From NCBI GenBank assembly GCA_049322215.1, contig JBMORU010000001.1, forward strand, positions 969,759 to 1,033,758: a stretch of 64,000 nucleotides of DNA. Direction: 5' to 3'. Within the stretch, counting starts at the first letter, position 1, and each line of letters begins with the position of its first letter. The DNA is from Patescibacteria group bacterium (GTDB lineage Bacteria; Patescibacteriota; WWE3; UBA101185; UBA10185). The translations under genes were made by a program, and so were the position numbers. This document shows, piece after piece, positions 2,760 through 57,992 of this stretch. Under the pieces are notes generated by a model that had not been told where the DNA came from, did no database searches, and saw only the letters and a program-made list of their open reading frames with translations.

Positions 2760-2772
2760 CCTATAGTATAAT
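2760..2772 (+). promoter_or_regulatory. CCTATAGTATAAT promoter element, copy 1 of 4 exact copies. It is a -10 TATAAT with a CCTATAG upstream extension and a TTAACA -35-like hexamer 17 nt upstream.
   Basis: Exact 13-mer shared with 10378, 11443 and 12606. It lies 70 nt upstream of the ATG at 2843. Confidence 0.5.
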
Positions 2773-2842
2773 ACAGGTATACCAGATCTATTGTTATTGG
2801 CTCAAACCTAATAACCAATAACACAAATATAAGGAGTAACAA

Positions 2843-3040
2843 ATGAAAATTACAAGCAAAAGCCAGTTAGATGAACAAATCGTTGCCGCCCAAAAAGCCG
2901 CAACACCAATGCCCAATTTCACAATTCCTACCAATCCAACGGAAGGACTTGTGGCGGCTACACTGCATACTCTTCAAGTTGAAGCCAAGAGACATGGGTG
3001 GCCTAATCCTAAGCTTCCAAAGATTTTGGGTCAAAAGTAA
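2843..3040 (+). CDS. hypothetical small protein (65 aa), GC-rich relative to surroundings
   Basis: Strong RBS AAGGAG 6 nt upstream of the ATG. It has its own promoter motif and is followed by an intrinsic terminator. No signal peptide. Confidence 0.5.
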   Translation: MKITSKSQLDEQIVAAQKAATPMPNFTIPTNPTEGLVAATLHTLQVEAKRHGWPNPKLPKILGQK

Positions 3041-3063
3041 AGTTTAGAGGCTAGCTTAGTAAA

Positions 3064-3117
3064 CCCCAGATGATTGCATACCAATACCGTTTGCAATTAC
3101 TCTGGGGTCTTTTTTTT
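3064..3117 (+). terminator. rho-independent terminator: stem CCCCAGATGATTGCA / TGCAATTACTCTGGGG followed by T10
   Basis: Inverted repeat plus U-run directly after the 2843 ORF. It lies between convergent genes. Confidence 0.65.
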
Positions 3118-5797: not shown

Positions 5798-5866
5798 CGT
5801 TGAGTAATTATAGCAATTTAAAACCAATTTTTCATGACTACACACTAGATTACTATGGGGTTTAGA

Positions 5867-5874
5867 TGTATAAT
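5867..5874 (+). promoter_or_regulatory. extended -10 promoter (TGTATAAT) for the lipoprotein gene at 5922
   Basis: TGnTATAAT lies 48 nt upstream of the ATG; RBS AAGGAGAG. Confidence 0.4.
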
Positions 5875-5921
5875 ATAAGGAGTATCGATACTTTCGGATA
5901 GTCATAAGGAGAGTTTGACAA

Positions 5922-6560
5922 ATGAATATTAAAAAATTTGCTGGTCGGGTTTTGCTCATGCTTGCGGTATTGATCTTGATCGGTTGCCAACGACAAGAGC
6001 GGATTTCGATCCTGACCTTTGTTGCAACTTTCACCCCCACACCAACGGTTACGGCAACACCCCTTCCGACTGCAACGCCAACCTTGATCCCGATAGCTAA
6101 TGCTACGGAAGAACCCGAAGCAGTGGCGATTGCAACAACCCCAACAGCAGGCGAACAGGCTTTCATTGACGCCGTTAATGGGTTTGCAAACTCTGAGGTA
6201 GGCGAATGGGTCTTAAGCGACGTTGAAAACCCTCAAGAAGTTACTGGTGACGCTATTATAGGCATTGCCCGAAACATTTTGGCAGCGGTCTACGCCCAAT
6301 TGCAGGAGCAAGGAGCTTTGCCGGAAGACATGCCTACCCTGGAAGATGCATTAGAAGTTTTAAGCACGCCAGAGAAAGCGTTAGCCTTCGGTAGCTGCTT
6401 TAATCCCGCAATCGAATCCTACGAGGAAAATCAAAATGCAGCTGCGCTCGCGGAACAGCTTGCCTACTGCATCGAAAACGTAGACGAATACGAAGGAAAT
6501 CTCGATTTGCGTCGGGCAGTGACAGATTTCATTATCAATCAAATCACAACGGAGGAATAA
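5922..6560 (+). CDS. putative lipoprotein (212 aa; lipobox LIGC; Thr/Pro-rich linker), GC-rich island
   Basis: Signal peptide MNIKKFAGRVLLMLAVLILIGC, then TPTPTVTATPLPTATPT linker. About 52% GC by hand count in 60-nt windows at 5941-6060, against about 27% in a 60-nt window in recG (8301-8360). Confidence 0.6.
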   Translation: MNIKKFAGRVLLMLAVLILIGCQRQERISILTFVATFTPTPTVTATPLPTATPTLIPIANATEEPEAVAIATTPTAGEQAFIDAVNGFANSEVGEWVLSDVENPQEVTGDAIIGIARNILAAVYAQLQEQGALPEDMPTLEDALEVLSTPEKALAFGSCFNPAIESYEENQNAAALAEQLAYCIENVDEYEGNLDLRRAVTDFIINQITTEE

Positions 6561-8081: not shown

Positions 8082-8291
8082 ATGCTAGATAGGTTATTAA
8101 TAAAAATAGGCTTGAAAAAAAGGGAACCAAAGGTAGTGGTGCTTGCCAAAAAGGCAAAGAAAAAGATAAAAAAAACAGTAAAACAATTATGGAAAAAGGG
8201 TGTCATAAAAAAATTTTTAGTTGTACTGCTTGCTTTAGCTTTTCTTGCCACTTCAGTATTACCCTATGTCATTAGCGCCTACGGGTTTTAA
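8082..8291 (+). CDS. hypothetical small Lys-rich protein with a C-terminal TM segment (69 aa)
   Basis: Starts 3 nt after the tyrS stop, and its stop overlaps the recG ATG (TAATG). No clear SD sequence. Whether it is a real gene is not established. Confidence 0.3.
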   Translation: MLDRLLIKIGLKKREPKVVVLAKKAKKKIKKTVKQLWKKGVIKKFLVVLLALAFLATSVLPYVISAYGF

Positions 8292-10309
8292 TGAATTTAA
8301 AGTCTTCAGTAAACTTAGTACCTAAAATAGGGCCTAAATATCAAAAGCTTTTAAATAAACTAGAAATATACAAAGTAGAGGATTTGCTTTACCACTTTCC
8401 TTTTAGATACGAGGATTACTCAAAAGTAAGCAAAGTTTCAGAATTAATACCTAATGCTGATGTAACTATAAAAGCGCAAATAGTTAGTGCTCAAAATATT
8501 TTTACTAAAAACCGAAAAAGAATAACAAAAGCAATCGCACTAGACGAAACAGGTGAGTTAGAACTTATTTGGTTTAACCAACATTACATAAAAAAGGCTC
8601 TATTAATAGGTGAAGAATATTACATAAGTGGAAAAGTAGGAACTTTTAGCTATAAACCCGCAATTATAAGTCCACAACTAGAACTTGTAGAAAAGGGGAA
8701 AACACTTAATACAGGAAGAATTGTACCTGTTTACCCTGAAACAAAAGGGCTTACTTCGAAGTGGATTAGAGATAAAATAGATTTTTTGCTAAATAAAATA
8801 ATAAGCATTGAAGAAATATTGCCAAAAGAGTTACTTGAAGAAAATAATTTCCCAACAATAAAAGCAGCACTAAGAAATATGCATTTTCCGAAAATATTAA
8901 GAGATGCTGAAGAAGCAAAAAAAAGATTCGCCTTTGAGGAGTTACTAACAGAACTTTTGAGAGTAGAGCATAGAAAGCATATTTGGCACCAAAAAATGGA
9001 AGGAGTGCCACTTAAAGTAGATGAGTATAAAAAAGAAATCGAAACTTTTGAAAATAGTTTGCCGTTTGAATTAACTTCATCACAAAAAAACGCGGTAAGA
9101 GAAATATTTGAAGAAATGCAAGGTCAGCACCCTATGAATAGATTACTTGAAGGGGATGTTGGCACTGGAAAAACGGTTGTTGCTGTAGCAGCGGCATACC
9201 TAGCGTACTTAAATGGCTTTAAAACGCTTTATATGGCTCCCACAGAAATTTTAGCGCAACAACACTACAAAAACTTTATTCAATATTTAGAACCTTTTAA
9301 AGTAAAAATAGAACTTAAGACCGGGAGTAAAAAAACTAATTTAAATAATACAGAGTTTGATATAGCCATTGGAACCCATGCCTTATTATTTACAGAAGAC
9401 GCATTAGAAAAAGTGGGGCTTGTAGTTATAGATGAACAACACCGATTTGGAGTAAAGCAACGCGCAAAACTAGCTTCGTTAAGTAACGAAACAAAGGCAC
9501 CAAATATTTTAACAATGACTGCAACACCTATTCCTAGAACGTTAGCTTTGACTCTTTATGGAGATTTGTCTATTTCAACACTAGATGTTCCGCCAAATAA
9601 AGACAAAAAAATAACCACAAAGGTGGTGCCTGATTCTAAAAGACTTTCTGCATACAAATGGATTAAAAGCAAAGGTGAACCTACATTTATTGTTTGCCCT
9701 TTAATTGAAGAATCTGAGCATGAAATGCTAGAAAATGTTAAAGCCGCTGAAGCTGAATACGAAAAGCTTTCTAAAGGTATTTTTAAAGATATATCGGTGG
9801 GGTTACTACATGGGCGAATGAAACCTGCAGAGAAAAAAGAAATTGTAGATAAATTCAGAGCAGGGGAATATAAAGTGCTAATTTCTACTCCCGTAATTGA
9901 GGTAGGAATAGATATTCCTGATGCAACAATAATAGTAATAGAAAGTGCAGAGCGTTATGGACTTGCCTCGCTGCACCAATTAAGAGGGCGTGTTGGTAGA
10001 GGAAAAAAAGAGGGATTCTGTTTGCTTTTTCAATCTAACTATTCAAAAAAGGCTTATGCACGCTTAAAAAACTTGGAAAAAATTAATTCAGGCTTAAAAC
10101 TTGCAGAAATAGACATGAAGTACCGAGGGCAAGGTGACGTATTTGGCACTATGCAAAGCGGAATTAAAAGTTTTAAAGTGGCAGATATTGGCAATTTAAA
10201 AATGATCGAAGATACTAAAAAAGCTGCACAAAAATATTATCCAAAGTTGCATAATTACCCACTATTAGAACAAAAAATAAAAGTGTCAGATGAAGTTATA
10301 AATAATTGA
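8291..10309 (+). CDS. recG: ATP-dependent DNA helicase RecG
   Basis: Wedge domain N-terminus, helicase motifs GDVGTGKT and DEQHRFG, size 672 aa. Confidence 0.85.
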   Translation: MNLKSSVNLVPKIGPKYQKLLNKLEIYKVEDLLYHFPFRYEDYSKVSKVSELIPNADVTIKAQIVSAQNIFTKNRKRITKAIALDETGELELIWFNQHYIKKALLIGEEYYISGKVGTFSYKPAIISPQLELVEKGKTLNTGRIVPVYPETKGLTSKWIRDKIDFLLNKIISIEEILPKELLEENNFPTIKAALRNMHFPKILRDAEEAKKRFAFEELLTELLRVEHRKHIWHQKMEGVPLKVDEYKKEIETFENSLPFELTSSQKNAVREIFEEMQGQHPMNRLLEGDVGTGKTVVAVAAAYLAYLNGFKTLYMAPTEILAQQHYKNFIQYLEPFKVKIELKTGSKKTNLNNTEFDIAIGTHALLFTEDALEKVGLVVIDEQHRFGVKQRAKLASLSNETKAPNILTMTATPIPRTLALTLYGDLSISTLDVPPNKDKKITTKVVPDSKRLSAYKWIKSKGEPTFIVCPLIEESEHEMLENVKAAEAEYEKLSKGIFKDISVGLLHGRMKPAEKKEIVDKFRAGEYKVLISTPVIEVGIDIPDATIIVIESAERYGLASLHQLRGRVGRGKKEGFCLLFQSNYSKKAYARLKNLEKINSGLKLAEIDMKYRGQGDVFGTMQSGIKSFKVADIGNLKMIEDTKKAAQKYYPKLHNYPLLEQKIKVSDEVINN

Positions 10310-10377
10310 GTATAGGGTATTGTCATAAAGTGAAAACTCCTAAATTTACATAAATAAAGCCTTTTCCTATGCTCCAA

Positions 10378-10390
10378 CCTATAGTATAAT
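10378..10390 (+). promoter_or_regulatory. CCTATAGTATAAT promoter element, copy 2
   Basis: Exact 13-mer, 43 nt upstream of the ATG at 10434. Confidence 0.5.
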
Positions 10391-10433
10391 TAGGCAACTA
10401 TCTGATAAACCAATACAAAAGGAGTACCTTACT

Positions 10434-11366
10434 ATGTACTTTAACAAAAAAATCACGACTTTGCTTTTATGGCTGCTTTTGATTATTTTGATGGCAGCAT
10501 GTGGAAGTGCGGACGATGCGGCAAGTGCTTTGCGCACGGCTGCGGATGCGGTAGAAAGCGTAGGTGAGGCCTCAGAAGATGTTAATGAACTAATTAATAA
10601 TCTTCAACAACCACCTCAAGCAAATAACACTGCACAAACAACCACAACAGACACTACAGGAACAACCGAACAACCCCAAAGTACGCCTGCAACACAAACA
10701 TGTAGTGGACAGGTTCAGTTCAACAACACAACCAGCATGGAGCTCTATGAGCATTACCCTGAGCTTGTCAACATGCAACCTACTCAGGCCAACACACTAA
10801 GCACATCATTTGGGCAGCTGGTATTTTACAACTACACCAACGTCCAAATCGACATGCAGGCCATTTCCAGTGCAGTCGAAAAACTGTACAGCATGGTAGG
10901 TAAGCAGGCTTTTCGGCTAAATACTGGAGGTACACCATACTGCCTTGTTGCAAAATCGTTCCCTAGTAGAACGTTGGTTATTGTTCCTCGCGAAATCGGC
11001 CGTTCGGAACTGACACCTGCGCAAAGCCACACCAACGCGGGCACATTTTTGGCAAGCAACGGCGCGTTTTCTTTCGTGTACTTTGAAAGGGGTTTCGAAG
11101 AAAGAGCCGATCAGGCAGTAAACATGGCAGCCATATTCACAGAGCTATGCAACGTACACCTGGGCATTGTAAGTCCATATTACGATGCAGAGGGTCCAGA
11201 CTGGTTCTGCAATGATTACATTGTGGGAAGCACGTTTAAAATTTTTGGCTTAGAAAGCGACACCAACGGTATTGCAACCAGGGCTAAAAACAACGGTGCT
11301 GACAATTTCTTCTATGTAGTCGATTTTAATGACTATATGGACACGGCACTGTTTAACATCGACTAA
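10434..11366 (+). CDS. lipoprotein, paralog A (310 aa; lipobox MAAC), GC-rich
   Basis: Signal peptide plus Cys. Shares motifs with the next two genes: MELYEHYPELVNMQP, LVIVPREIG, ELCN, DWFCNDY. I counted about 63% GC in 10501-10560. Confidence 0.6.
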   Translation: MYFNKKITTLLLWLLLIILMAACGSADDAASALRTAADAVESVGEASEDVNELINNLQQPPQANNTAQTTTTDTTGTTEQPQSTPATQTCSGQVQFNNTTSMELYEHYPELVNMQPTQANTLSTSFGQLVFYNYTNVQIDMQAISSAVEKLYSMVGKQAFRLNTGGTPYCLVAKSFPSRTLVIVPREIGRSELTPAQSHTNAGTFLASNGAFSFVYFERGFEERADQAVNMAAIFTELCNVHLGIVSPYYDAEGPDWFCNDYIVGSTFKIFGLESDTNGIATRAKNNGADNFFYVVDFNDYMDTALFNID

Positions 11367-11374
11367 TCTATTAC

Positions 11375-11421
11375 GGGATCTAAAGTTTGTTAAAAAAAAC
11401 AAACCTTAGGTCCCTTTTTTT
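11375..11421 (+). terminator. intrinsic terminator (GGGATCTAAAGTTTGTT ... AACAAACCTTTAGGTCCC + T7)
   Basis: Imperfect inverted repeat plus T-run after paralog A. Confidence 0.6.
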
Positions 11422-11442
11422 GTAGGTTTGCTTTATACCAAG

Positions 11443-11455
11443 CCTATAGTATAAT
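11443..11455 (+). promoter_or_regulatory. CCTATAGTATAAT promoter element, copy 3
   Basis: Exact 13-mer, 56 nt upstream of the ATG at 11512. Confidence 0.5.
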
Positions 11456-11511
11456 AGGTTAACGCATTTTTATAACTAAATAACACCGCTCAAACAAGGA
11501 GTTAGGTACAA

Positions 11512-12522
11512 ATGAAAAAAGCAATTGCTTTAGCTTCGCTAATGTTTTTATGGCTGTTAACAGCATGTGCAACAGGGGATGCAAGTTCGTCAAAAAGTGC
11601 AACTGACACTATTTTGGATGAAATTGCGGCAAACATCGTGGAAAGTGATTCTAAGCCTTCAACTGGCCAATTTCCACCACCTCCGCAGGCACCACCTTTA
11701 AATACAAACGCAAGTGGGGATTCAAACAGGGCTGCTTTGACATTGCCAACCACATCTGTGACAAATGCCGTGCCAAATACTACTGAGGTTCCGGCATACG
11801 GTTTGAGGTACGTTTCGTTTGAGAGCATGGAATCTTCAAACGTAGATATGTACGCTCATTTTCCTGCGCTGCATAACTATACCCCGTGGCAAAACTTTAC
11901 AGTAACCTCGGGGGGAATTAGCGTTACATTCGTTAATTTCAACCAAAGCATTAACCTCAACCAAAATGTACTACAACACTTTTTGGATGGGTTAGCTACA
12001 GCATCACAAAGTTGGGTGAATGTTACCAGCGTTGACGGTACCACATACGACCTGCGCATTTCAAAGTCCCAGAGCATTACTGTTATGGTTGCTCCGTACG
12101 ACATAGGTACATCTGATCTTATGAGTGATGAACATACGCTTGGTAACTACCCCGAACAACGCATTCAGGGATACTCGTTAATAACTGGAAGTGGTATTCT
12201 TGGCGTGGTAAAAAGCGATGGTGGAAACGGAACAAATGACTTAATTTTAACTGAAGCATGCAACAGCTTCATTGATTTAAGTCCCAATGGCTTTTACGCA
12301 GAAGATATGGAAATCGCCATTTACAGCAACACCTCTATTGTTCCTGGGGACGCGTTTTGTAACATGTATGCACGCTCTAGCTCTTACACTTCTGGAGGAC
12401 ATGTTACAAATCACCAAGAGCTGTACAGCTTTATGAGCACGCTTACTGTTTTTGGTTACCAGTACATGTATTTGCCTGAGCAATTATTTGGCGGGTACAT
12501 AACACAGTATGTAACAAACTAA
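11512..12522 (+). CDS. lipoprotein, paralog B (336 aa; lipobox LTAC)
   Basis: Motifs VDMYAHFPALHNYTP, ITVMVAPYDIG, TEACNSF, DAFCNMYA. Confidence 0.6.
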   Translation: MKKAIALASLMFLWLLTACATGDASSSKSATDTILDEIAANIVESDSKPSTGQFPPPPQAPPLNTNASGDSNRAALTLPTTSVTNAVPNTTEVPAYGLRYVSFESMESSNVDMYAHFPALHNYTPWQNFTVTSGGISVTFVNFNQSINLNQNVLQHFLDGLATASQSWVNVTSVDGTTYDLRISKSQSITVMVAPYDIGTSDLMSDEHTLGNYPEQRIQGYSLITGSGILGVVKSDGGNGTNDLILTEACNSFIDLSPNGFYAEDMEIAIYSNTSIVPGDAFCNMYARSSSYTSGGHVTNHQELYSFMSTLTVFGYQYMYLPEQLFGGYITQYVTN

Positions 12523-12528
12523 TATACA

Positions 12529-12573
12529 GGTTCAACTTTTAGGAAAAATCCCTACAAGTTGAACCTTTTTTTT
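12529..12573 (+). terminator. intrinsic terminator (GGTTCAACTT ... AAGTTGAACC + T8)
   Basis: Perfect 10-bp stem plus T-run. Confidence 0.7.
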
Positions 12574-12605
12574 ACTTAAAAGAAAAACCTTTTCACGTGC
12601 AAGAG

Positions 12606-12618
12606 CCTATAGTATAAT
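12606..12618 (+). promoter_or_regulatory. CCTATAGTATAAT promoter element, copy 4
   Basis: Exact 13-mer, 44 nt upstream of the ATG at 12663. Confidence 0.5.
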
Positions 12619-12662
12619 ATGGAAATTGCTTACCCAATAAACTAACTAGAAGGAGATTTAAA

Positions 12663-13493
12663 ATGAAAGGTAAAGCAACTCTGTATGTAGTAATACTGCT
12701 TCTCGTGGTAGCGTTGTTAAGCGGATGTACCAATGAAGAGGCTGTTTCGACTTTGACAACTGTAATTGAGGATGCAACAGGCAGTACTCAAGTAGAAAAC
12801 ACAAATCCAGACCAAGGCGGCACTATAAATGTTAGTGGCACGGCCAACCTGGATATTTATGCACACTATCCACAGTTGGCTAATGTGACTCCATTAGAGG
12901 ATTTCACGCTTACATCACCTGCAAGCTACGGTTATTCCGTACGCATTGTGAATTACAGCCATTTATCTGTAAACTCCGCTGCGGCCGGTCAATACCTTGA
13001 CTTGTTGCACTGGTTTGCGTGGAACAAAGTCACAGCTTTGGATATGAAAAATGTTGACCATTATATTTACATAAAGAATGTGCCAACTACCCAGCATGTT
13101 TTAGTAATTGTGCCCCAAGAAGTAGGTGCTTCGGTACTTATGCCAGAAGGAAACAATGTTAGAGGGGGCACACAAACTGGCACAAACGGTACGTTTGCAT
13201 TTTCTATGTTTAACGCGCAAACGCTTGATGTAAGCGAAAAAGGCAAAAATGAACTGAGGTTACTAGTTGAATTATGCAACTCATTCATTGGTGCCGGCAA
13301 TAATGGTTACAACTCTGGAGAAAGCGATGCTTTTTGCAATTCATATGCTACTGCTACGGTGCTAAAAGCGTTTGGTCTCAAACAAAATCTACAAGAAGTA
13401 ATTGACGCCTCTAAAGATGGCCAGTGGGGAAGTTATACCTTTATGTATATCAACTCCTGGGACGCATATATAGGCGCGCAAGTAACTAACTAA
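12663..13493 (+). CDS. lipoprotein, paralog C (276 aa; lipobox LSGC)
   Basis: Motifs LDIYAHYPQLANVTP, VLVIVPQEVG, VELCNSF, DAFCNSYA. Confidence 0.6.
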   Translation: MKGKATLYVVILLLVVALLSGCTNEEAVSTLTTVIEDATGSTQVENTNPDQGGTINVSGTANLDIYAHYPQLANVTPLEDFTLTSPASYGYSVRIVNYSHLSVNSAAAGQYLDLLHWFAWNKVTALDMKNVDHYIYIKNVPTTQHVLVIVPQEVGASVLMPEGNNVRGGTQTGTNGTFAFSMFNAQTLDVSEKGKNELRLLVELCNSFIGAGNNGYNSGESDAFCNSYATATVLKAFGLKQNLQEVIDASKDGQWGSYTFMYINSWDAYIGAQVTN

Positions 13494-13501
13494 TAACTAA
13501 A

Positions 13502-13556
13502 GGCCAAAAGAGTAAATCCACTCATAATGGAAATTCATTCTTTTGGCTTTTTTTTC
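13502..13556 (+). terminator. intrinsic terminator (GGCCAAAAGA ... TCTTTTGGC + T9)
   Basis: Inverted repeat plus T-run. Confidence 0.65.
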
Positions 13557-13588
13557 GCTTAAACACAACAATCTGTTAAAATACCCCC

Positions 13589-14143
13589 ATGTCTAGAATT
13601 ACATCAGGCACCGCAAAAGGAAAAAACTTAATAGTTCCTAATATTGAAAATATTAGACTCCCACAAGACAAATTTAAATTGGCTTTATTTTCTATACTTG
13701 CAGATAAAGTAAAAGGCGCCGATTGTTTAGATTTATACGCAGGAAGTGGAAGTTTGGGTCTTGACGCATTAAGCAGAGGAGCACAATCATGCGACTTTGT
13801 AGATACAGATAGAAAAGCAATAGATGCTATAGAAAAAAATATGTTCGATTTAGGTTTTACAGGTAGAGGAGAAATAATTCAGGATGACGCTGTGAAATAT
13901 GTTGCAAATACAAGTGTAACTTACGACATTATTTTTGCAGATCCATTTTTTGATGACGTAAAACATAGGTTTTTAATGCAAAATATGGAAGAAATTTTGA
14001 ACCCAAATGGGGTAATTTGTTTTTCACACGGAAAAGAGTTAGATATAGAAGATGTTATTAAAAACACTAAACTTGAGATTTTCACCACTCGAAAATATAA
14101 CAATGCGTTTCTTACAATTTTAAAAGCAACTGCCACAAGCTAA
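13589..14143 (+). CDS. rsmD: 16S rRNA (guanine966-N2)-methyltransferase RsmD family
   Basis: LDLYAGSGSLGLDALSRGA SAM motif and DPPF-like ADPFF. Confidence 0.7.
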   Translation: MSRITSGTAKGKNLIVPNIENIRLPQDKFKLALFSILADKVKGADCLDLYAGSGSLGLDALSRGAQSCDFVDTDRKAIDAIEKNMFDLGFTGRGEIIQDDAVKYVANTSVTYDIIFADPFFDDVKHRFLMQNMEEILNPNGVICFSHGKELDIEDVIKNTKLEIFTTRKYNNAFLTILKATATS

Positions 14144-14225: not shown

Positions 14226-14912
14226 TTAGGCACCATAAGATGCAGTAGTACCCAAAGGATCAAGCTGACCGTAAATATTTTGCATTTCCTGAAGGGCAGC
14301 ACGGGCGCGTGTAATACGATGGTTACCGGCAGAAGGTTTAACATCAGGAAGTGCTAAGTGGGCGTGTGTGTCCACATGCTCTATCATCTGCGTTGTAACC
14401 AACATCAAGACCCTAATCTGGAAAATGGCACACTCTGTTGATACAGTTATTTGTTGTGCACCAAAGCCTTTCCCAATCGATGCATTTAAACCCCGGGCTA
14501 TTCCCAAAATGTACTCAGCAGCCTCATCCATTAGGGGTTGATGCGTTCGAGTAAGCACTGGACCTAAATCAACGACAGTGTTAAGGGCTAGACCCAACAC
14601 GTTGATACGCTGCTCAGATTCCGTTTTTGACAAATTATGCCCGGTGGTAGGAAAAACAGACAAAACTGTGTCTACCAGCGCTATAACAGCCCATTCAAAC
14701 GCTTCAAGCACTCTTTGAGCATCTGGGTTATTTTTAGCTGCATACTCACGCATTCTGTTTCGAGCAATTTTAATTTTTTTGTAGAATTTCATTCCCTTTG
14801 CATCTTCTGGGGGTTCGTCATCTACAGAAAAAGTTAAAAGCCAAAACAGAGTTGAGAGCGCAGTTAAATTAAATGCACCCCGCAACAAATTACCTATTGT
14901 AAGCCTCTTCAT
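14226..14912 (-). CDS. hypothetical protein with an N-terminal TM/signal segment, GC-rich
   Basis: RBS AAGGAGAATGAGTTAAATG. A CTATAGGG(tgc)TATAAT promoter-like element lies upstream on the minus strand at about 14967-14990. I counted about 53% GC in 14281-14340. Confidence 0.5.
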   Translation of the reverse strand: MKRLTIGNLLRGAFNLTALSTLFWLLTFSVDDEPPEDAKGMKFYKKIKIARNRMREYAAKNNPDAQRVLEAFEWAVIALVDTVLSVFPTTGHNLSKTESEQRINVLGLALNTVVDLGPVLTRTHQPLMDEAAEYILGIARGLNASIGKGFGAQQITVSTECAIFQIRVLMLVTTQMIEHVDTHAHLALPDVKPSAGNHRITRARAALQEMQNIYGQLDPLGTTASYGA

Positions 14913-15024
14913 ATTAACTCATTCTCCTTGCAATATTTGATTTTGATGATAATTATATCAGTGCTGTATTATAGCACCCTATAGTAATGAAGATCAACAT
15001 TGTAAAAAGGGTTGGGGGCTTAAG

Positions 15025-45426: not shown

Positions 45427-46683
45427 TTACTGTCTTTTCTTTAAGGCAAAACCGCTAGTTATAGATGTTAAGCCTAGCAAGGTTAACACTACAGTTGAAG
45501 TAGCACCTGTTCTAGGTAATTCTTCTATACTTAGCACTTCACCATTTTCGTAACATACCGTTGCGGTATCTGAAGCTTCTTCATTATCATCATATTTAGC
45601 TACAGCTTCATTAACTACACACTTACTAAAGTCAGTTCTGTCGTATTCTTCAGAGTTAACTTTAACAGTAATGTAAAAGGTTCTTTCTTCACCAGGTTTA
45701 AAGTTATCCCAATCTTCGGTTAAGTCACCTGAAAGCTTAGCTAACTCATCTGGTAAAAAATCGTGCATACGCATATTATCGAATTCTACATCGTCAACAT
45801 CACCTGAATCAGTGTTGTTTTTAACTACGATTCTAAACTCAACTTCATCATCTTCAGTAACACCGGTTACTTTATCTTTCCATGATTTGTCACCTTTAAT
45901 GCGAACTTTCTTCTCTATATCAAAGGATTTATTAACGATACAGTCACCACCACCATAAGAACATACAGGTTCTTCGGGTTCCTCTGGCTGTTCACACTCA
46001 GAAGCATTGTATGAAACAGTATGCTTTTCAGTGTCACCAGAGTTTACCTTAACTCTAAGTTCTACTTCACCTGAATCAATAGAAGTCAAATTTGTATCTA
46101 ACTTCCATGTTTCGGAATCTCCAGAATTCAAAGTACGTGTGTCACCAGTAATACCTGTTTGTTTGTCTTTAGGTGTAATTTCTACAACATAATTTGAATC
46201 ACTGTTATCATTATTTTTAACTTGAACGTTAATTACTACACTTTCTTCTTCGCATGCAACCTCAGCAGAATAGGTTATAGAACCTTCAGGCTCTTCTTCA
46301 CCTTTACAGTTTATAGCTTCATAAGATACTTTTCTTTTATCAGTACCCTTGTTGCCATTTGTCCAAGTTAAGTAAAATTCAACTTCACCGGCAGATACAC
46401 TATTTAAGCCTGTATCAATTTCCCAAATAGCTTCTTCACCGGGATTTACAGTTTTAGTATCTCCTGACACGCCAGACTGCAAATCTGTAGGTGTAACATC
46501 CATAGCAGCTTGAGAGTTCTTTTCAGTATTTTTAAAAGTCGCTTTAATGACTACAGAATTATCTGTACAAACAGCTTCAGCTTCTTGAGATGTTTTCCAT
46601 GCGTTAGTGCTATAAACAGGCATAAAGGCAACTGTAACGGCAACTAAAAGCATTGTCTTTGAAATATTTCTTTTAATATTCAT
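45427..46683 (-). CDS. LPXTG (LPRTG) sortase-anchored surface protein (start revised to the ATG at 46683: MNIKRNISKTMLLVAVTVAFMPV...)
   Basis: C-terminus LPRTGATSTVVLTLLGLTSITSGFALKKRQ is a sorting signal. The C-terminal roughly 190 aa are paralogous to the gene at 46846. The CTATAGGGTATAAT promoter is at about 46753-46766 (minus strand). Confidence 0.65.
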   Translation of the reverse strand: MNIKRNISKTMLLVAVTVAFMPVYSTNAWKTSQEAEAVCTDNSVVIKATFKNTEKNSQAAMDVTPTDLQSGVSGDTKTVNPGEEAIWEIDTGLNSVSAGEVEFYLTWTNGNKGTDKRKVSYEAINCKGEEEPEGSITYSAEVACEEESVVINVQVKNNDNSDSNYVVEITPKDKQTGITGDTRTLNSGDSETWKLDTNLTSIDSGEVELRVKVNSGDTEKHTVSYNASECEQPEEPEEPVCSYGGGDCIVNKSFDIEKKVRIKGDKSWKDKVTGVTEDDEVEFRIVVKNNTDSGDVDDVEFDNMRMHDFLPDELAKLSGDLTEDWDNFKPGEERTFYITVKVNSEEYDRTDFSKCVVNEAVAKYDDNEEASDTATVCYENGEVLSIEELPRTGATSTVVLTLLGLTSITSGFALKKRQ

Positions 46684-46792
46684 GGGGCAAGCCTCCAAAT
46701 TAATAAATACAAGTACAAAATAAGGATCCGAAGATCCTAAATATTCATTTATTATACCCTATAGTCACTACAGTGTCAAACTAGGACAAAAA

Positions 46793-46845: not shown

Positions 46846-47970
46846 TTACTTTCTTCTTTTCAAGGCATAACCACTAGTTATAGAGGTTAATCCCAGTAAG
46901 GTTAGTACTAATGTTGAAGCCGCACCTGTTTCAGGTAGTTCCTCAATGCCTAGTACATCTTCGGTGTCAGAATAACAAACGGTAGCCGTGTCAGAACCTT
47001 CTTCGGTTCCGTCATAAATCACTGTAGCCTCATTAACTACACACTTGTCAAAGTCAGATCTATCGTACTCATCAGGATCAACTCTTACTCTGATGATGAA
47101 AGTTCTTTCTTCACCAGGTTTAAAAGCATCCCAATCTTCAGTTAAGTCACCAGAAAGCTTAATTAGCTCATCTGGCAATATATCGTGCATTCTCATGTTA
47201 TCGAATGCAACACCATCAACATCGTTAGCGTCAGTTTTGTTTTTTACAACAACCCTAAACTCTACGACATCATCAAATTCAACATCAGTTACTTTATCTT
47301 TCCATTTTTTGTCACCCTCTATACGAACCTTTTTCTCTATATCAAATGACTTGTTAATGATACAGTTTTCACCACCTCCGTAGCCTCCACCGTAACCACC
47401 GTAGATACTACATGGGGTTTCTTCTGGATCATCTTCAGGTTCTGGCTCAGGTTCGTTAGCAGGACAGCTTATTTCATGATGTTGCGCAATACTGTCAGCA
47501 GCATAAAGCTTTAACTCTCCAGCTTTGGGCAAGGTGAATGAAGATTCAACCACCATACCTTGAGGGGACTCGTAAACAACTTCTCCATTAAGGTAAAACT
47601 TGTTTACACGTTCATCAACATCGTCGTCAATAAACACATAGCTGAATTCACATCCAGCAGGTAACTCCCCGAAATTCACCCATTCATGGAAGATTTTTGT
47701 GTAGGCTTCGGAGCTAGTCCAAACTCGTTCCTTACGTGTAGAAGTGTAAGTATCACTATCTACAGTATCAAAACGAAACGGATTAGTTCTTTTAACTACA
47801 AATACTTCATTAGAATCCTTTGTATAACTTGCACTACCTTCGCCCAAATACTGAGTTTCTGGTAAAGCAAAAGCCTCATTAAGAGGCATTATCCCAAGGG
47901 CTAAGATTGTCATAGCAACAACCTTAAGTGATTTATCAGAGAGCCTTGAAATGAATTTTATTAAGTTCAT
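46846..47970 (-). CDS. LPXTG (LPETG) sortase-anchored surface protein
   Basis: LPETGAASTLVLTLLGLTSITSGYALKRRK; GY/GG-rich segment; RBS AGGAAGGAG; a TATAAT next to CTATAGG lies upstream. Confidence 0.65.
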   Translation of the reverse strand: MNLIKFISRLSDKSLKVVAMTILALGIMPLNEAFALPETQYLGEGSASYTKDSNEVFVVKRTNPFRFDTVDSDTYTSTRKERVWTSSEAYTKIFHEWVNFGELPAGCEFSYVFIDDDVDERVNKFYLNGEVVYESPQGMVVESSFTLPKAGELKLYAADSIAQHHEISCPANEPEPEPEDDPEETPCSIYGGYGGGYGGGENCIINKSFDIEKKVRIEGDKKWKDKVTDVEFDDVVEFRVVVKNKTDANDVDGVAFDNMRMHDILPDELIKLSGDLTEDWDAFKPGEERTFIIRVRVDPDEYDRSDFDKCVVNEATVIYDGTEEGSDTATVCYSDTEDVLGIEELPETGAASTLVLTLLGLTSITSGYALKRRK

Positions 47971-48792: not shown

Positions 48793-49245
48793 TTACAAAG
48801 GGGCACTAACGTGCAGTAGCAACATGCCCATTTCACCAATTGGCCACCAAGCCTCATCATGGCATACACGCCCTTTACCGCTGTCTTTTTCAGGGTTAAG
48901 CACCGTGTGTAAAAACTTTTCTTCATCTGCCATAGAGGTGGGCAATGTCAAAATAAGATCAACATTTGGACTGCTGCGCTGAGTGTGCTTCCACGAAAGC
49001 CAGTGCAAATTCGCTCTGCTTCTGGTAAACGCCAGGTCAGCAAGCCTACTTAAAAATCCAACCCTAATAGCTAATCTGCGCAAAAGCACAGGTAGGGGAC
49101 GTCGATCAACAACGGTTACACTAAGAAAACCTGCATCCTCAACGTAAAAATCATAAACAACTTGTCCAGGAATAGCCTTTTGTATACGCAGAAACGGCAA
49201 AAGACTCTTGTCTACCTTTAAACCCTCATATACTTTATTTCGCAT
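48793..49245 (-). CDS. hypothetical protein (150 aa), GC-rich
   Basis: RBS AAGGAGAGA. I counted about 52% GC in 48841-48900. CCTATAGTG lies upstream on the minus strand. Confidence 0.45.
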   Translation of the reverse strand: MRNKVYEGLKVDKSLLPFLRIQKAIPGQVVYDFYVEDAGFLSVTVVDRRPLPVLLRRLAIRVGFLSRLADLAFTRSRANLHWLSWKHTQRSSPNVDLILTLPTSMADEEKFLHTVLNPEKDSGKGRVCHDEAWWPIGEMGMLLLHVSAPL

Positions 49246-49365
49246 TTGTTCTCTCCTTATAGTTTTGATAAGTAGGGAAATCTTAACACACTATAGGATC
49301 ATATGCATCTAAAATATACGCAATCAATTGAGTATATTAATAAAAATTGATATCATAGCAACGCT

Positions 49366-55372: not shown

Positions 55373-56359
55373 TTAAATTAAACTATTAATTTCGTCAGCA
55401 GTATCATCAACATCTTTATGAAACTTTGTGTGAATGTCTTTTAGCTGTTTATTTGTAACATGCGTATATATTTGGGTAGTAGACACATTAGAATGACCTA
55501 ATAGCTCTTGTACAGAACGTAAATCAGCACCCTCAGACAAAAGTCCGGTAGCAAATGTATGACGCAAAGTGTGTGGAGTAGCATCAATAGACAATCCGGC
55601 TCTAGTAACGTATTTTTTTATCATACGTTGCACACTTCTAGGCGTTAATCTTAAAGATTCGCCATCTTCATCACCAACTTCCATACGCTTGCCAGAATAA
55701 CGTAAGAATAAAGGTACGAAATTATCTCTACGCGTAGATAAGTAACGCTTTAACCAATCTTTAGCGCTAGGACTTAAATAAACTGTACGAACTTTTCGAC
55801 CTTTACCTACAACGGTAAATTCTCCTGAATTTAAATTTATGTCAGATACATCTAAATTTACTAATTCGCTTACACGTAACCCAGTGCTAAATAGGGTTTC
55901 AAGCATAGCTCTATCACGAATACCTGATTTCTTACTTAAATTTTGTGTTGAAAACAAGCCCTGCAATTGTTCTTCATTTAAAACTTTAGGAACACGTGCC
56001 TCTGGTTTACCTAAAATTATTTGTTCGGGGGATACTGTGTCTAAACCTAACTCCACCACAATGTATTTCAAAAAGGCACGAATTGCGACAAGAAATGTTT
56101 TTTGTGTAGATTTCTTGAATTCTTCATGCGATTTATTACTTATACGTCGGTTTAAATTTAAACGATACTTTCTAAGTAGTTCTTGATCAATATCGGATAC
56201 GTAAAAATCATCCTTCTTTAAATATGCCTTAGACCACTCAATAAAGTCATTTAAATAAAAATCGTACATACGAATTGTATTTTGAGAAAGGTTTTTTTCA
56301 ATTTCACAATGTTCTAAATAACGCGTAAGTAATTCTTTTAGAGATTTGGTCATAAACAT
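55373..56359 (-). CDS. tyrosine site-specific recombinase (XerC/XerD family)
   Basis: ...HTLRHTFATGLL...LLGHSNVSTTQIYTHV (R, H-x-x-R, and Y nucleophile). Confidence 0.8.
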   Translation of the reverse strand: MFMTKSLKELLTRYLEHCEIEKNLSQNTIRMYDFYLNDFIEWSKAYLKKDDFYVSDIDQELLRKYRLNLNRRISNKSHEEFKKSTQKTFLVAIRAFLKYIVVELGLDTVSPEQIILGKPEARVPKVLNEEQLQGLFSTQNLSKKSGIRDRAMLETLFSTGLRVSELVNLDVSDINLNSGEFTVVGKGRKVRTVYLSPSAKDWLKRYLSTRRDNFVPLFLRYSGKRMEVGDEDGESLRLTPRSVQRMIKKYVTRAGLSIDATPHTLRHTFATGLLSEGADLRSVQELLGHSNVSTTQIYTHVTNKQLKDIHTKFHKDVDDTADEINSLI

Positions 56360-56767
56360 ATGTTAACAAGAGTTAGAAAATTTTCAAACATAGAACATAG
56401 ATTATGCAAGTTTAAGATTTTGTAGACCTAGCATTAAAATTTACTCATTACATGTGATGCATAAGTCAACTAAAAAATAAAAATTGCTTACAGGGCATTC
56501 TAGAGCCTCACACCCATTATTTACTGTCACAACAACAAATAGTAAGAATCAGCATGTTTAAAACTGCTAAAAATGTAATGAAATAAAAAAAGACAAGTGA
56601 GGTATATACGCAAGAAATGAAAATGCGGCATTAAACGTTGAATAGAGTAGCTGCGCCGCAAACTAAAAATAAATTAACATACAATTAAACAAAAATTTGT
56701 TTGGTATTAAAAAGTAAATTAATTTGGATCAAATTATAGGGAACAGGTTAGAATATTAAAAAATACA

Positions 56768-56797
56768 AGACGTCGTATAATGTATGTTTAACGACGC
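56768..56797. other. candidate dif-like Xer recombination site: 11-bp arm ACGTCGTATAA, 6-bp spacer TGTATG, 11-bp arm TTTAACGACGC
   Basis: Imperfect palindrome (8 of 11 arm positions match). The core CGTATAATGTATGTT matches the E. coli dif core CGCATAATGTATATT (from memory) at 13 of 15 positions. It lies about 410 bp upstream of the xer gene. Confidence 0.4.
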
Positions 56798-57010
56798 CGA
56801 GGATTTATATGTATTGCAAGCACATAGATTCAACTGAATAGGGAGGCTTAATGGGATCACTCTATTAAAGCAGTTAATTTAGAAGAATTAATTATGTATT
56901 AATAAGTATTATTTATAGCTATTTATTTATTAATTCAGTTTTTATTTACGGCTTAGTAAAATTAATTCTTACTTGAGTACAAATTAAGTTATGCACAATT
57001 AACTTGAAAA

Positions 57011-57092
57011 GTATGACAACCCTCCCCTAGCCAAAGTATGACAACATAAACTATGACATTCTTACTTAAATTGCTTAACTAACTATGACAAC
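57011..57092. repeat. four direct repeats of TATGACA(A/T)(C/T): three copies TATGACAAC and one TATGACATT, at irregular spacing; iteron/operator-like
   Basis: Copies at 57011, 57036, 57051 and 57084, in the 840-bp AT-rich non-coding region. Confidence 0.4.
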
Positions 57093-57110
57093 ATTACAAC
57101 AAGCATTAGT

Positions 57111-57125
57111 GTAATAATACTATAG
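57111..57125 (-). promoter_or_regulatory. CCTATAGTATTAT promoter-like element on the minus strand (12 of 13 identical to the CCTATAGTATAAT motif), pointing into the non-coding region toward xer
   Basis: Reverse complement of TAATAATACTATAGG. Confidence 0.35.
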
Positions 57126-57197
57126 GTATTAGCAAATATAACTATGGGGTGTTAACAGCACTAGCACTTCCCTGCCTTCAGTTTTAGTCCTGTTTGT

Positions 57198-57992
57198 TTA
57201 AGGCTTAAATACAAGCAATAGTAGTAAAAATAATACTGTTACTAAAGAATATTCAAAAACAAATCTATTTGTTATTTTATTTTTTAAATGGGCTTGTAAG
57301 TAACCAATTCCCGACATCAAAATTGACGCATCAAACATTGCTAACAAAAAAGATTCTGTAGGTATAAATGAAACACTGATGCTCAAGGAAAAGACAACGA
57401 AGGAAACTAAGAAACTACCTATTAGTACGTCCCCTATTTTAAATACTTTAGAATCTTCATCAAAGCGTTGCGACCAAAAAGTGTAAACACTAAATAAAAA
57501 AGTTGAGCCACTAATAATTAAACTCTGGAAAACTGAGATTATAGGTACTTTAAAGATACCTGCAAAATAGGGAATACATACAACTACTATTAATATTTGG
57601 CTCCAGGTAACAGCGACTCTATATAAGGGAATGAGCTCGTTTTTTTGCTGCACAACAAGAAATATATTATTCATTAACGCAATAGCGTATGTAATTACAA
57701 ATAAAGCCCCCAGTGCCCCTACAACTACAAGTTTGCTTAAGTTTGGAAAAAACACTAAGGATAATAACGCCCCGATTACCGCATGAATATGTAAAAGTAT
57801 TACAGGTAAAGTGAGTTTAAAGCTGTTTATTGGTAAATGAATTAATACCCCACCTAAAACACAAAAAAGCAAAGACCCAACAAGAAAATAAAGACGCAAC
57901 TCCCCTGCTACAAAAGAAAAAAAATACAACAGAACAACCTGCACTAAAGCATATATAGAATATTTAACTTTTTTTGATATGACAAAACTCAT
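57198..57992 (-). CDS. polytopic membrane protein, hypothetical
   Basis: About 8 hydrophobic helices. It overlaps ruvC by 4 nt, indicating an operon. Confidence 0.5.
   Translation of the reverse strand: MSFVISKKVKYSIYALVQVVLLYFFSFVAGELRLYFLVGSLLFCVLGGVLIHLPINSFKLTLPVILLHIHAVIGALLSLVFFPNLSKLVVVGALGALFVITYAIALMNNIFLVVQQKNELIPLYRVAVTWSQILIVVVCIPYFAGIFKVPIISVFQSLIISGSTFLFSVYTFWSQRFDEDSKVFKIGDVLIGSFLVSFVVFSLSISVSFIPTESFLLAMFDASILMSGIGYLQAHLKNKITNRFVFEYSLVTVLFLLLLLVFKP

Follow-up and report, generated by a model that had tools for sequence, protein, structure and literature searches.

We analysed a 64-kb stretch of DNA from a metagenome-assembled genome (MAG) of the Patescibacteria, whose nearest relatives belong to candidate division WWE3 (RecG 54-60% identical), and found three tandem, co-oriented genes lodged in it between recG and rsmD. 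These genes probably form an acquired accessory array encoding three lipid-anchored, tethered, zincin-like proteins that lack the HExxH motif. The whole stretch is hereafter called the window, coordinates throughout are window positions, and the three proteins of the trio are named L1 (310 amino acids (aa); 10434-11366, +), L2 (336 aa; 11512-12522, +) and L3 (276 aa; 12663-13493, +), the last being identical to NCBI ACOZAO_05340 of a Patescibacteria group bacterium MAG. The backbone genes on either side are recG (8291-10309, +; Pfam RecG_wedge/DEAD/Helicase_C) upstream and rsmD (13589-14143, +; a Cons_hypoth95 methyltransferase, Pfam PF03602, E 3.5e-38) downstream.

The junction that the trio interrupts is a conserved one. 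Of the loci fetched, 33 have both recG and rsmD, Bacillota among them; in 32 of these, rsmD comes next after recG in the same orientation and no more than about 200 bp away, and in most WWE3 loci the gap is within 25 bp. In the window this gap measures 3.28 kb and holds the trio, and a hidden Markov model of the family found no member in 43 related loci. Since the three genes lie between neighbours that are adjacent in relatives, the 3.28-kb segment is an accessory insertion, specific to this lineage, in the genome of a WWE3-like member of the Patescibacteria. An assembly artefact or contamination was ruled out, as the recG-L1 junction is present in three assemblies, namely the NCBI MAG contig and two independent Logan assemblies. 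In one related locus (L011) rsmD adjoins recG but on the opposite strand. In the single exception among the 33, the WWE3 relative with the most similar gene order (L012), the recG-rsmD junction is occupied by a different gene (12031-13557, -), which encodes an HExxH-containing M32-type carboxypeptidase on the opposite strand; the junction may be a recurrent insertion site.

The insert also stands apart in base composition and codon usage. GC content is 45.6% in L1, 43.0% in L2, 42.3% in L3 and 41.6% in the whole insert, compared with 33.4% in recG, 32.4% in rsmD and 36.7% in the window. A preliminary description of this DNA, made from the sequence alone, had called the genes strongly GC-rich, at 50-63%; that range overstates the content (60-nt windows inside the genes average 42.4%, with single peaks of 63-65%), but the underlying shift at synonymous sites is real. 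The GC content at third codon positions (GC3) is 0.457, 0.398 and 0.379 in L1, L2 and L3 versus 0.254 +/- 0.027 in 50 other open reading frames (ORFs) of the window, corresponding to z-scores of 7.6, 5.4 and 4.7. The codons ATA, AGA and TTA are depleted in the trio, and CTG, CGC and C-ending (NNC) codons are enriched. Homologous genes of the family in other genomes have the same GC3 as their neighbours. Together, the insertion and the codon shift favour acquisition, and a horizontal origin would be the cause of the shift. The earlier suggestion of acquired cargo fits these data: the trio breaks the conserved recG-rsmD junction and its GC3 lies 4.7-7.6 s.d. high.

That the three genes are paralogues, as first described, is borne out by BLASTP, with significant alignments for all three pairs. 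L1 and L3 align with an E value of 6e-27 (27% identity over 254 aa), L2 and L3 with 5e-18 (28% over 279 aa), and L1 and L2 with 2e-08 in the N-terminal half only. All of the shared sequence blocks quoted in the preliminary description were found in the translations, and the two cysteines within these blocks are invariant in the three copies and likewise in five remote homologues (see below). Because identity between the copies is 24-28%, they read as old, anciently diverged paralogues and not as recent duplicates. Similarity at the DNA level is confined to the promoter cores, and tblastn retrieved no further family copy or pseudogene from the window.

All three proteins have the N-terminus of a lipoprotein, in agreement with the initial assignment. 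We applied a PROSITE PS51257-style lipobox rule in regular-expression form (K/R within residues 1-7, Cys at position 15-35), and each protein passes it, with LMAA-C23 in L1, LLTA-C19 in L2 and LLSG-C22 in L3. There are two K/R among residues 1-7 of each protein and a hydrophobic, uncharged h-region ahead of each lipobox; Met at -3 places the L1 lipobox slightly off the strict consensus. The weak NCBIfam matches of the trio are all to lipoprotein signal regions. The NCBI gene model of L1 (ACOZAO_05330, P0012; 291 aa) begins at Met20 (start region 10434-10490) and so loses the signal peptide, with the lipobox Cys then lying 4 residues from the N-terminal end; a Shine-Dalgarno sequence precedes the ATG farther upstream, which gives the 310-aa lipoprotein. 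The segment after the lipobox Cys is rich in T, Q, P and N, forming a tether of about 70 aa (T/Q/P-rich) in L1, 80 aa in L2 and 35 aa in L3, which is followed by the conserved domain (residues ~60-276 of L3). In the AlphaFold model, residues 26-59 of L3 are disordered (predicted local distance difference test score, pLDDT, < 50). Neither Lgt nor LspA was found among the ORFs scanned in the 64-kb window. Two LPXTG cell-wall-anchored proteins are encoded at 45427-46698 (-) and 46846-47970 (-), which indicates an envelope of a sortase-using, monoderm type; a large type IV pilus/pseudopilin cluster spans about 20.5-41.5 kb of the window.

Each gene of the trio is framed by its own expression signals. 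The 13-mer CCTATAGTATAAT occurs exactly at 10378, 11443 and 12606, and its 3' end is a perfect -10 hexamer, TATAAT, with a weak -35 element (TTTTCC, TTTGCT and TTTTCA, respectively) 17 nt 5' of the hexamers. Promoter P1 (10362-10390, +) thus consists of the -35-like TTTTCC at 10362-10367, a 17-nt spacer and the -10 at 10385-10390, with the 13-mer at 10378-10390; the P2 core (11443-11455, +) has its -10 at 11450-11455; and P3 (12590-12618, +; 13-mer at 12606-12618) reads TTTTCA, 17-nt spacer, TATAAT, with 10/12 matches. P1 and P3 are 74% identical over 42 nt. An AAGGAG Shine-Dalgarno sequence lies 7-9 nt ahead of every ATG, at 10419-10424 (L1, 9 nt 5' of the ATG at 10434), 11496-11501 (L2) and 12650-12655 (L3), all on the plus strand. 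A hairpin with a U-tract follows all three stop codons (dG -19.5 to -20.7 kcal/mol, z -4.5 to -5.5; 0/200 shuffles equally stable). These intrinsic terminators, also on the plus strand, are T1 at 11375-11421 (hairpin 11375-11414 plus U7; -20.7 kcal/mol, z -5.1), T2 at 12528-12574 (-19.5 kcal/mol, z -5.5) and T3 at 13499-13556 (-19.6 kcal/mol, z -4.5), the latter two also recovered as inverted repeats. With a promoter, a Shine-Dalgarno sequence and a terminator of its own, each of L1, L2 and L3 reads as a monocistronic unit, which fits the autonomous cassettes proposed earlier. The 13-mer, described as identical in front of each gene, is indeed exact ahead of all three; it is, however, not private to the array, because a fourth exact copy at 2760 (four in the window versus 0.02 expected) precedes an unrelated 65-aa ORF at 2843-3040 that has its own terminator.

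Searches for relatives of the trio returned very little, as anticipated for an otherwise unrecognisable family. Pfam and NCBIfam gave nothing relevant at E <= 1, only sub-threshold signal-peptide noise, and a profile search of the PDB gave nothing at E <= 10. Word-indexed searches with L3 and with a profile of the three paralogues brought back only the query proteins, and only query proteins were among the matches listed for an eight-sequence profile. An exhaustive HMMER scan of 1.84 billion (1.84e9) cluster representatives retrieved the trio itself and only five credible remote homologues (279-330 aa, E 7e-5 to 1e-3). hhalign confirms the remote homology at 98.6% (E 1.3e-15 over 191 columns), and an alignment of the remote clade found only two more loci in metagenomes. 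The blocks held in common with the remote homologues are YPEL, WxN[YF]T, LFIVPxD, TE.C and FCNS, and the residues invariant in eight sequences are P70, N97, P151, E203, C205, C225, N226 and G238 (L3 numbering). All remote homologues have an N-terminal lipobox or transmembrane (TM) anchor and are single-copy genes in small-genome contexts, and their neighbourhoods are envelope-flavoured, with penicillin-binding proteins (PBPs), PMT-type glycosyltransferases, a Rce1-like protease and glucosaminidase-like proteins. No literature specific to this family was found. By these searches the family appears to be previously undescribed, very rare and nearly orphan. Two candidate features were rejected: His107 of the YxHYP block as a catalytic residue, the position being Y, F or W in 4/5 remote homologues, and a conserved N-glycosylation sequon in the N-[YF]-[TS] block, sequons not being enriched compared with shuffles.

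We then turn to the predicted structure of the conserved domain. AlphaFold2 on the eight sequences gave a best model with a pLDDT of 74.1 and a predicted template modelling score of 0.72, the motif helices scoring 82-92. In this model a sheet is followed by a helix at residues 190-208, which carries T-E-L-C-N, and a helix at 218-236, which carries D-A-F-C-N; a sheet and then two motif helices is the order found in zincins. Foldseek searches of the PDB (best E 6e-3) and of BFVD agree on the best families, with BFVD matches to M61, baculovirus ORFs, M34, M1 and SprT, although the fold-match scores are sub-threshold. The HExxH motif is absent from all nine family members, where the helix instead reads [T/V/I]-E-x-C-[N/Q/H]; in 8/9 members the acidic residue of a second motif, [D/E]-x-x-C-N, follows at 16-18 residues and its Cys at 19-21. 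L3 has T202-E203-L-C205-N206 and D222-A-F-C225-N226. In L1 and L3 the spacing T-E-L-C-N-x18-C equals that of the M1 signature, HEXXH-x18-E, whereas in L2 an insertion of 13 aa separates the Cys motifs further and extends the distances to 29 (acidic residue) and 32 (Cys). Since the defining HExxH is missing, the trio should not be filed as metallopeptidases. The earlier idea that the two conserved cysteines form a disulfide is plausible, because they sit on adjacent predicted helices.

Taken together, these results suggest the following model. The 3.28-kb insertion carries three anciently diverged paralogues, each of which would be transcribed alone from a sigma-70-type promoter to its own terminator. 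After export, the lipobox Cys of each product would receive a lipid that keeps the protein attached to the outside of the cytoplasmic membrane, where a disordered T/Q/P/N-rich tether would carry a globular domain of about 215 aa. The fold of this domain is predicted to be, most likely, that of a zincin (gluzincin-type) metallopeptidase in which the zinc site HExxH...E has been rebuilt as T-E-x-C-[N/Q/H] ... [D/E]-x-x-C-N, and the invariant Cys pair may staple the two former active-site helices together as a disulfide. At the surface such proteins could bind peptides or proteins, as pseudo-proteases, or could be weak hydrolases of a non-canonical kind, and the divergence of the three copies would give each its own specificity. 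Of these possibilities we favour helix stapling together with a pseudo-protease role in binding.

Several observations weigh against this model. The predicted fold derives from one prediction on a very shallow alignment: the five AlphaFold2 models score 74, 64, 48, 43 and 40, and AlphaFold on the three paralogues alone reached a pLDDT of only 38. The equivalence of T-E-x-C-N with HExxH is a putative one. The Glu at the predicted catalytic position is invariant in 8/9 members, which argues against a complete loss of catalysis, and one metagenomic remote member (L050) has neither this Glu nor the first Cys. As to acquisition, no mobile-element hallmarks (integrase, tRNA, flanking direct repeats or target duplication) flank the insert, and no donor was found in viral contigs, in Joint Genome Institute metagenomes (searched with the paralogue profile) or in phage and plasmid collections (tblastn). 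Finally, the GC3 shift may mark a gene class and not a single transfer, because several other orphans in the window share a raised GC3.

There are four such orphans (GC3 0.36-0.47, z 4-8), each with its own promoter and AAGGAG: a 65-aa ORF, sORF65 (2843-3040, region 2760-3110); a 212-aa lipoprotein, lipo212 (5922-6560, region 5850-6560); a 228-aa TM protein, TM228 (14226-14912, region 14226-14990, -); and a 150-aa ORF (48793-49245, region 48793-49300, -). sORF65, lipo212 and TM228 occupy the pheT/PBP, PBP/tyrS and rsmD/MoOx junctions, which are uninterrupted in some WWE3 relatives, and the backbone appears to be peppered with single-gene insertions of one compositional class. A promoter type of the form CTAT[A/G]G-N0-6-TATAAT is present at 2761, 10379, 11444, 12607, 14984 (-) and 46764 (-), with looser variants at 5853, 49296 (-) and 57125 (-). 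These sites precede accessory or surface genes, one of which encodes an LPXTG protein, and the type was not found in about 340 kb of syntenic DNA from 20 WWE3 relatives. The type may define a regulon particular to this lineage, or it may have been imported along with the genes.

Variation between strains was assessed with a 3.6-kb contig from another sample or strain (L049), which is collinear with window positions 9199-12840 and covers about 2,120 coding bases of the array. The two sequences differ at 44 positions, 41 of them in patches of recG, 3 in array coding sequence and 0 in intergenic DNA; the array differences (2 non-synonymous, 1 synonymous) are at background level. The recG patches, at 9205-9367, 9866-9916 and 10039-10126, are 13-22% divergent from the contig, mostly at synonymous sites, next to an array that is about 99.9% identical; either they stem from recombination with a divergent lineage or the short-read contig is chimeric.

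The alternatives concern both what the proteins do and how the genes came to be there. There is an appreciable, if minor, chance that the zincin-like model is an artefact of the shallow alignment and that the domain has another, possibly new fold with no function assigned: the alignment holds only eight sequences, 3/5 models fall below a pLDDT of 50 and the fold-match scores are sub-threshold. The proteins could instead be active non-canonical metallopeptidases, which we consider unlikely, that keep the catalytic Glu and bind a metal through Cys205, Cys225, [H/Q/N]206 and [D/E]222 instead of His-His-Glu; living on the surface of its partner, the (often anaerobic) episymbiont would use them at its own cell surface to process or degrade peptides or proteins of the host surface. 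Such a thiolate-based active site is the main competing reading, and the Glu, invariant in 8/9 members, speaks for it; both Cys are invariant in 8/9 members as well, two remote members read T-E-x-C-H-Q, resembling the M1 motif H-E-x-x-H-Q, the fold matches are enzymes, and the relatives are MAGs of uncultured organisms, whose surface thiols may be reduced or oxidised, depending on their exposure to oxygen. Against activity, T, V or I stands in place of the first His throughout, and the three window proteins have Asn, which binds zinc poorly, at the second position; L050 lacks the Glu and the first Cys; extracytoplasmic Cys pairs are more often disulfides; and peptidase profiles do not match, even weakly. 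Rather improbable, in our estimate, is a narrower proposal in which the family would be a catalytically competent zincin derivative that has exchanged His-His-Glu for a two-thiolate zinc site (T-E-x-C-[H/Q/N] ... [D/E]-x-x-C-N), and in this genome would sit within an acquired set of surface or orphan genes united by a dedicated, lineage-specific CCTATAG-TATAAT regulon.

The genes could also be native, their GC3 and promoter being typical of envelope genes that this lineage expresses strongly or regulates together and their position between recG and rsmD resulting from local rearrangement or in-situ duplication. The CTATAG-TATAAT promoter together with raised GC3 also at sORF65, lipo212 and TM228 speaks for this, as do an LPXTG gene that has the promoter type only and the failure to find mobility genes or a donor. 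However, GC3 is low in rpsP and other backbone genes whose expression is presumably high, the recG-rsmD adjacency is ancestral and the family is missing from all sampled WWE3 relatives. Other GC3-rich orphans also sit at junctions uninterrupted in relatives, the promoter type is missing from the roughly 340 kb of syntenic DNA of 20 relatives, and a native origin is quite unlikely. Least probable of all is a system of variable surface antigens or adhesins, driven by diversifying selection or phase variation as in the lipoprotein multigene families of Mollicutes or Borrelia, although the trio consists of tandem monocistronic lipoprotein paralogues in a reduced genome, with deep divergence between copies, a surface location and strong individual promoters. 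In the coding regions Tandem Repeats Finder detected a single 8-nt repeat, in two copies, and nothing else; there is no sign of a switch by inversion or slippage (all inverted repeats are terminators, and the A7/A6 runs are Lys codons), the core motifs are conserved and only 3 of about 2,120 coding positions differ between strains. The diversifying family envisaged in the preliminary description is hence unsupported, with little power, since the comparison comprises just 3 substitutions against one strain. We continue to prefer an acquired array of zincin-like surface proteins.

The only tyrosine recombinase gene in the window (55373-56359, -) lies 42 kb from the trio. It adjoins an 840-bp AT-rich, non-coding gap (56360-57198, 28% GC), whose minus strand carries a CCTATAGTATTAT element and then 4-5 copies of (G)TTGTCATA(G/C)TT. 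Rfam gave no match in this gap, which could serve as an iteron or regulatory region or encode an RNA that has escaped annotation.

Bacteria of the candidate phyla radiation (CPR)/Patescibacteria depend on other cells, and their surface proteins, mostly unannotated orphans, are the likely host interface. Such orphans are common in CPR; the trio now comes with a testable structural hypothesis, defined expression signals and a clean insertion history, as an accessory array placed in a housekeeping backbone that is rigid elsewhere. If the proteins are active, they would extend the known chemistry of the zincin site, and a competent derivative would have a metallopeptidase active site of a kind not described before, exposed on the outside of CPR episymbionts; if they are inactive, they would add, from the surface of a bacterium, a case in which a protease fold has been reused for binding. 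The promoter and the raised GC3 that several inserted orphan genes share also give an easy means of listing the accessory genes of this lineage.

The trio can be compared with several known systems. Like the gluzincins (MEROPS clan MA(E): M1 aminopeptidase N/ERAP1, M61, M9 collagenase, M30 and thermolysin), the modelled domain has a beta-sheet followed by two long helices on which the best-conserved residues lie, a Glu as the second residue of the helix motif and, in L1 and L3, a second motif spaced 18 residues from the first. Unlike gluzincins, it has T/V/I-E-x-C-N/Q/H in place of HExxH, a [D/E]-x-x-C-N in place of the third-ligand Glu and an invariant Cys pair; it matches no peptidase family profile and belongs to small single-domain lipoproteins with a disordered tether. 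Degenerate zincin-fold binding domains are known from anthrax lethal factor (N-terminal/ATLF-like), edema factor and Certhrax (PA-binding domains), but these belong to Bacillus toxins with no sequence relation to the trio, which keeps the Glu, and they score lower than M1-type enzymes. Integron and other mobile cassettes share the modular gene with a 3' hairpin between conserved genes; however, the units of the trio each have a promoter and no adjacent integrase, and their hairpins are terminators and not attC sites because the sequences are unrelated and U-tracts are present. The Mycoplasma Vlp/Vsa and Borrelia Vsp/Mlp proteins are tandem paralogous lipoprotein families of genome-reduced bacteria, and the trio resembles them in its clustered, singly transcribed paralogues, in a small host-dependent genome and in the succession of signal peptide, tether and variable globular part. 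It differs in having no homopolymer or invertible switches or silent cassettes, in being nearly repeat-free and in showing no strain variation of that kind, and its copies, at 24-28% identity, have nevertheless kept a common core.

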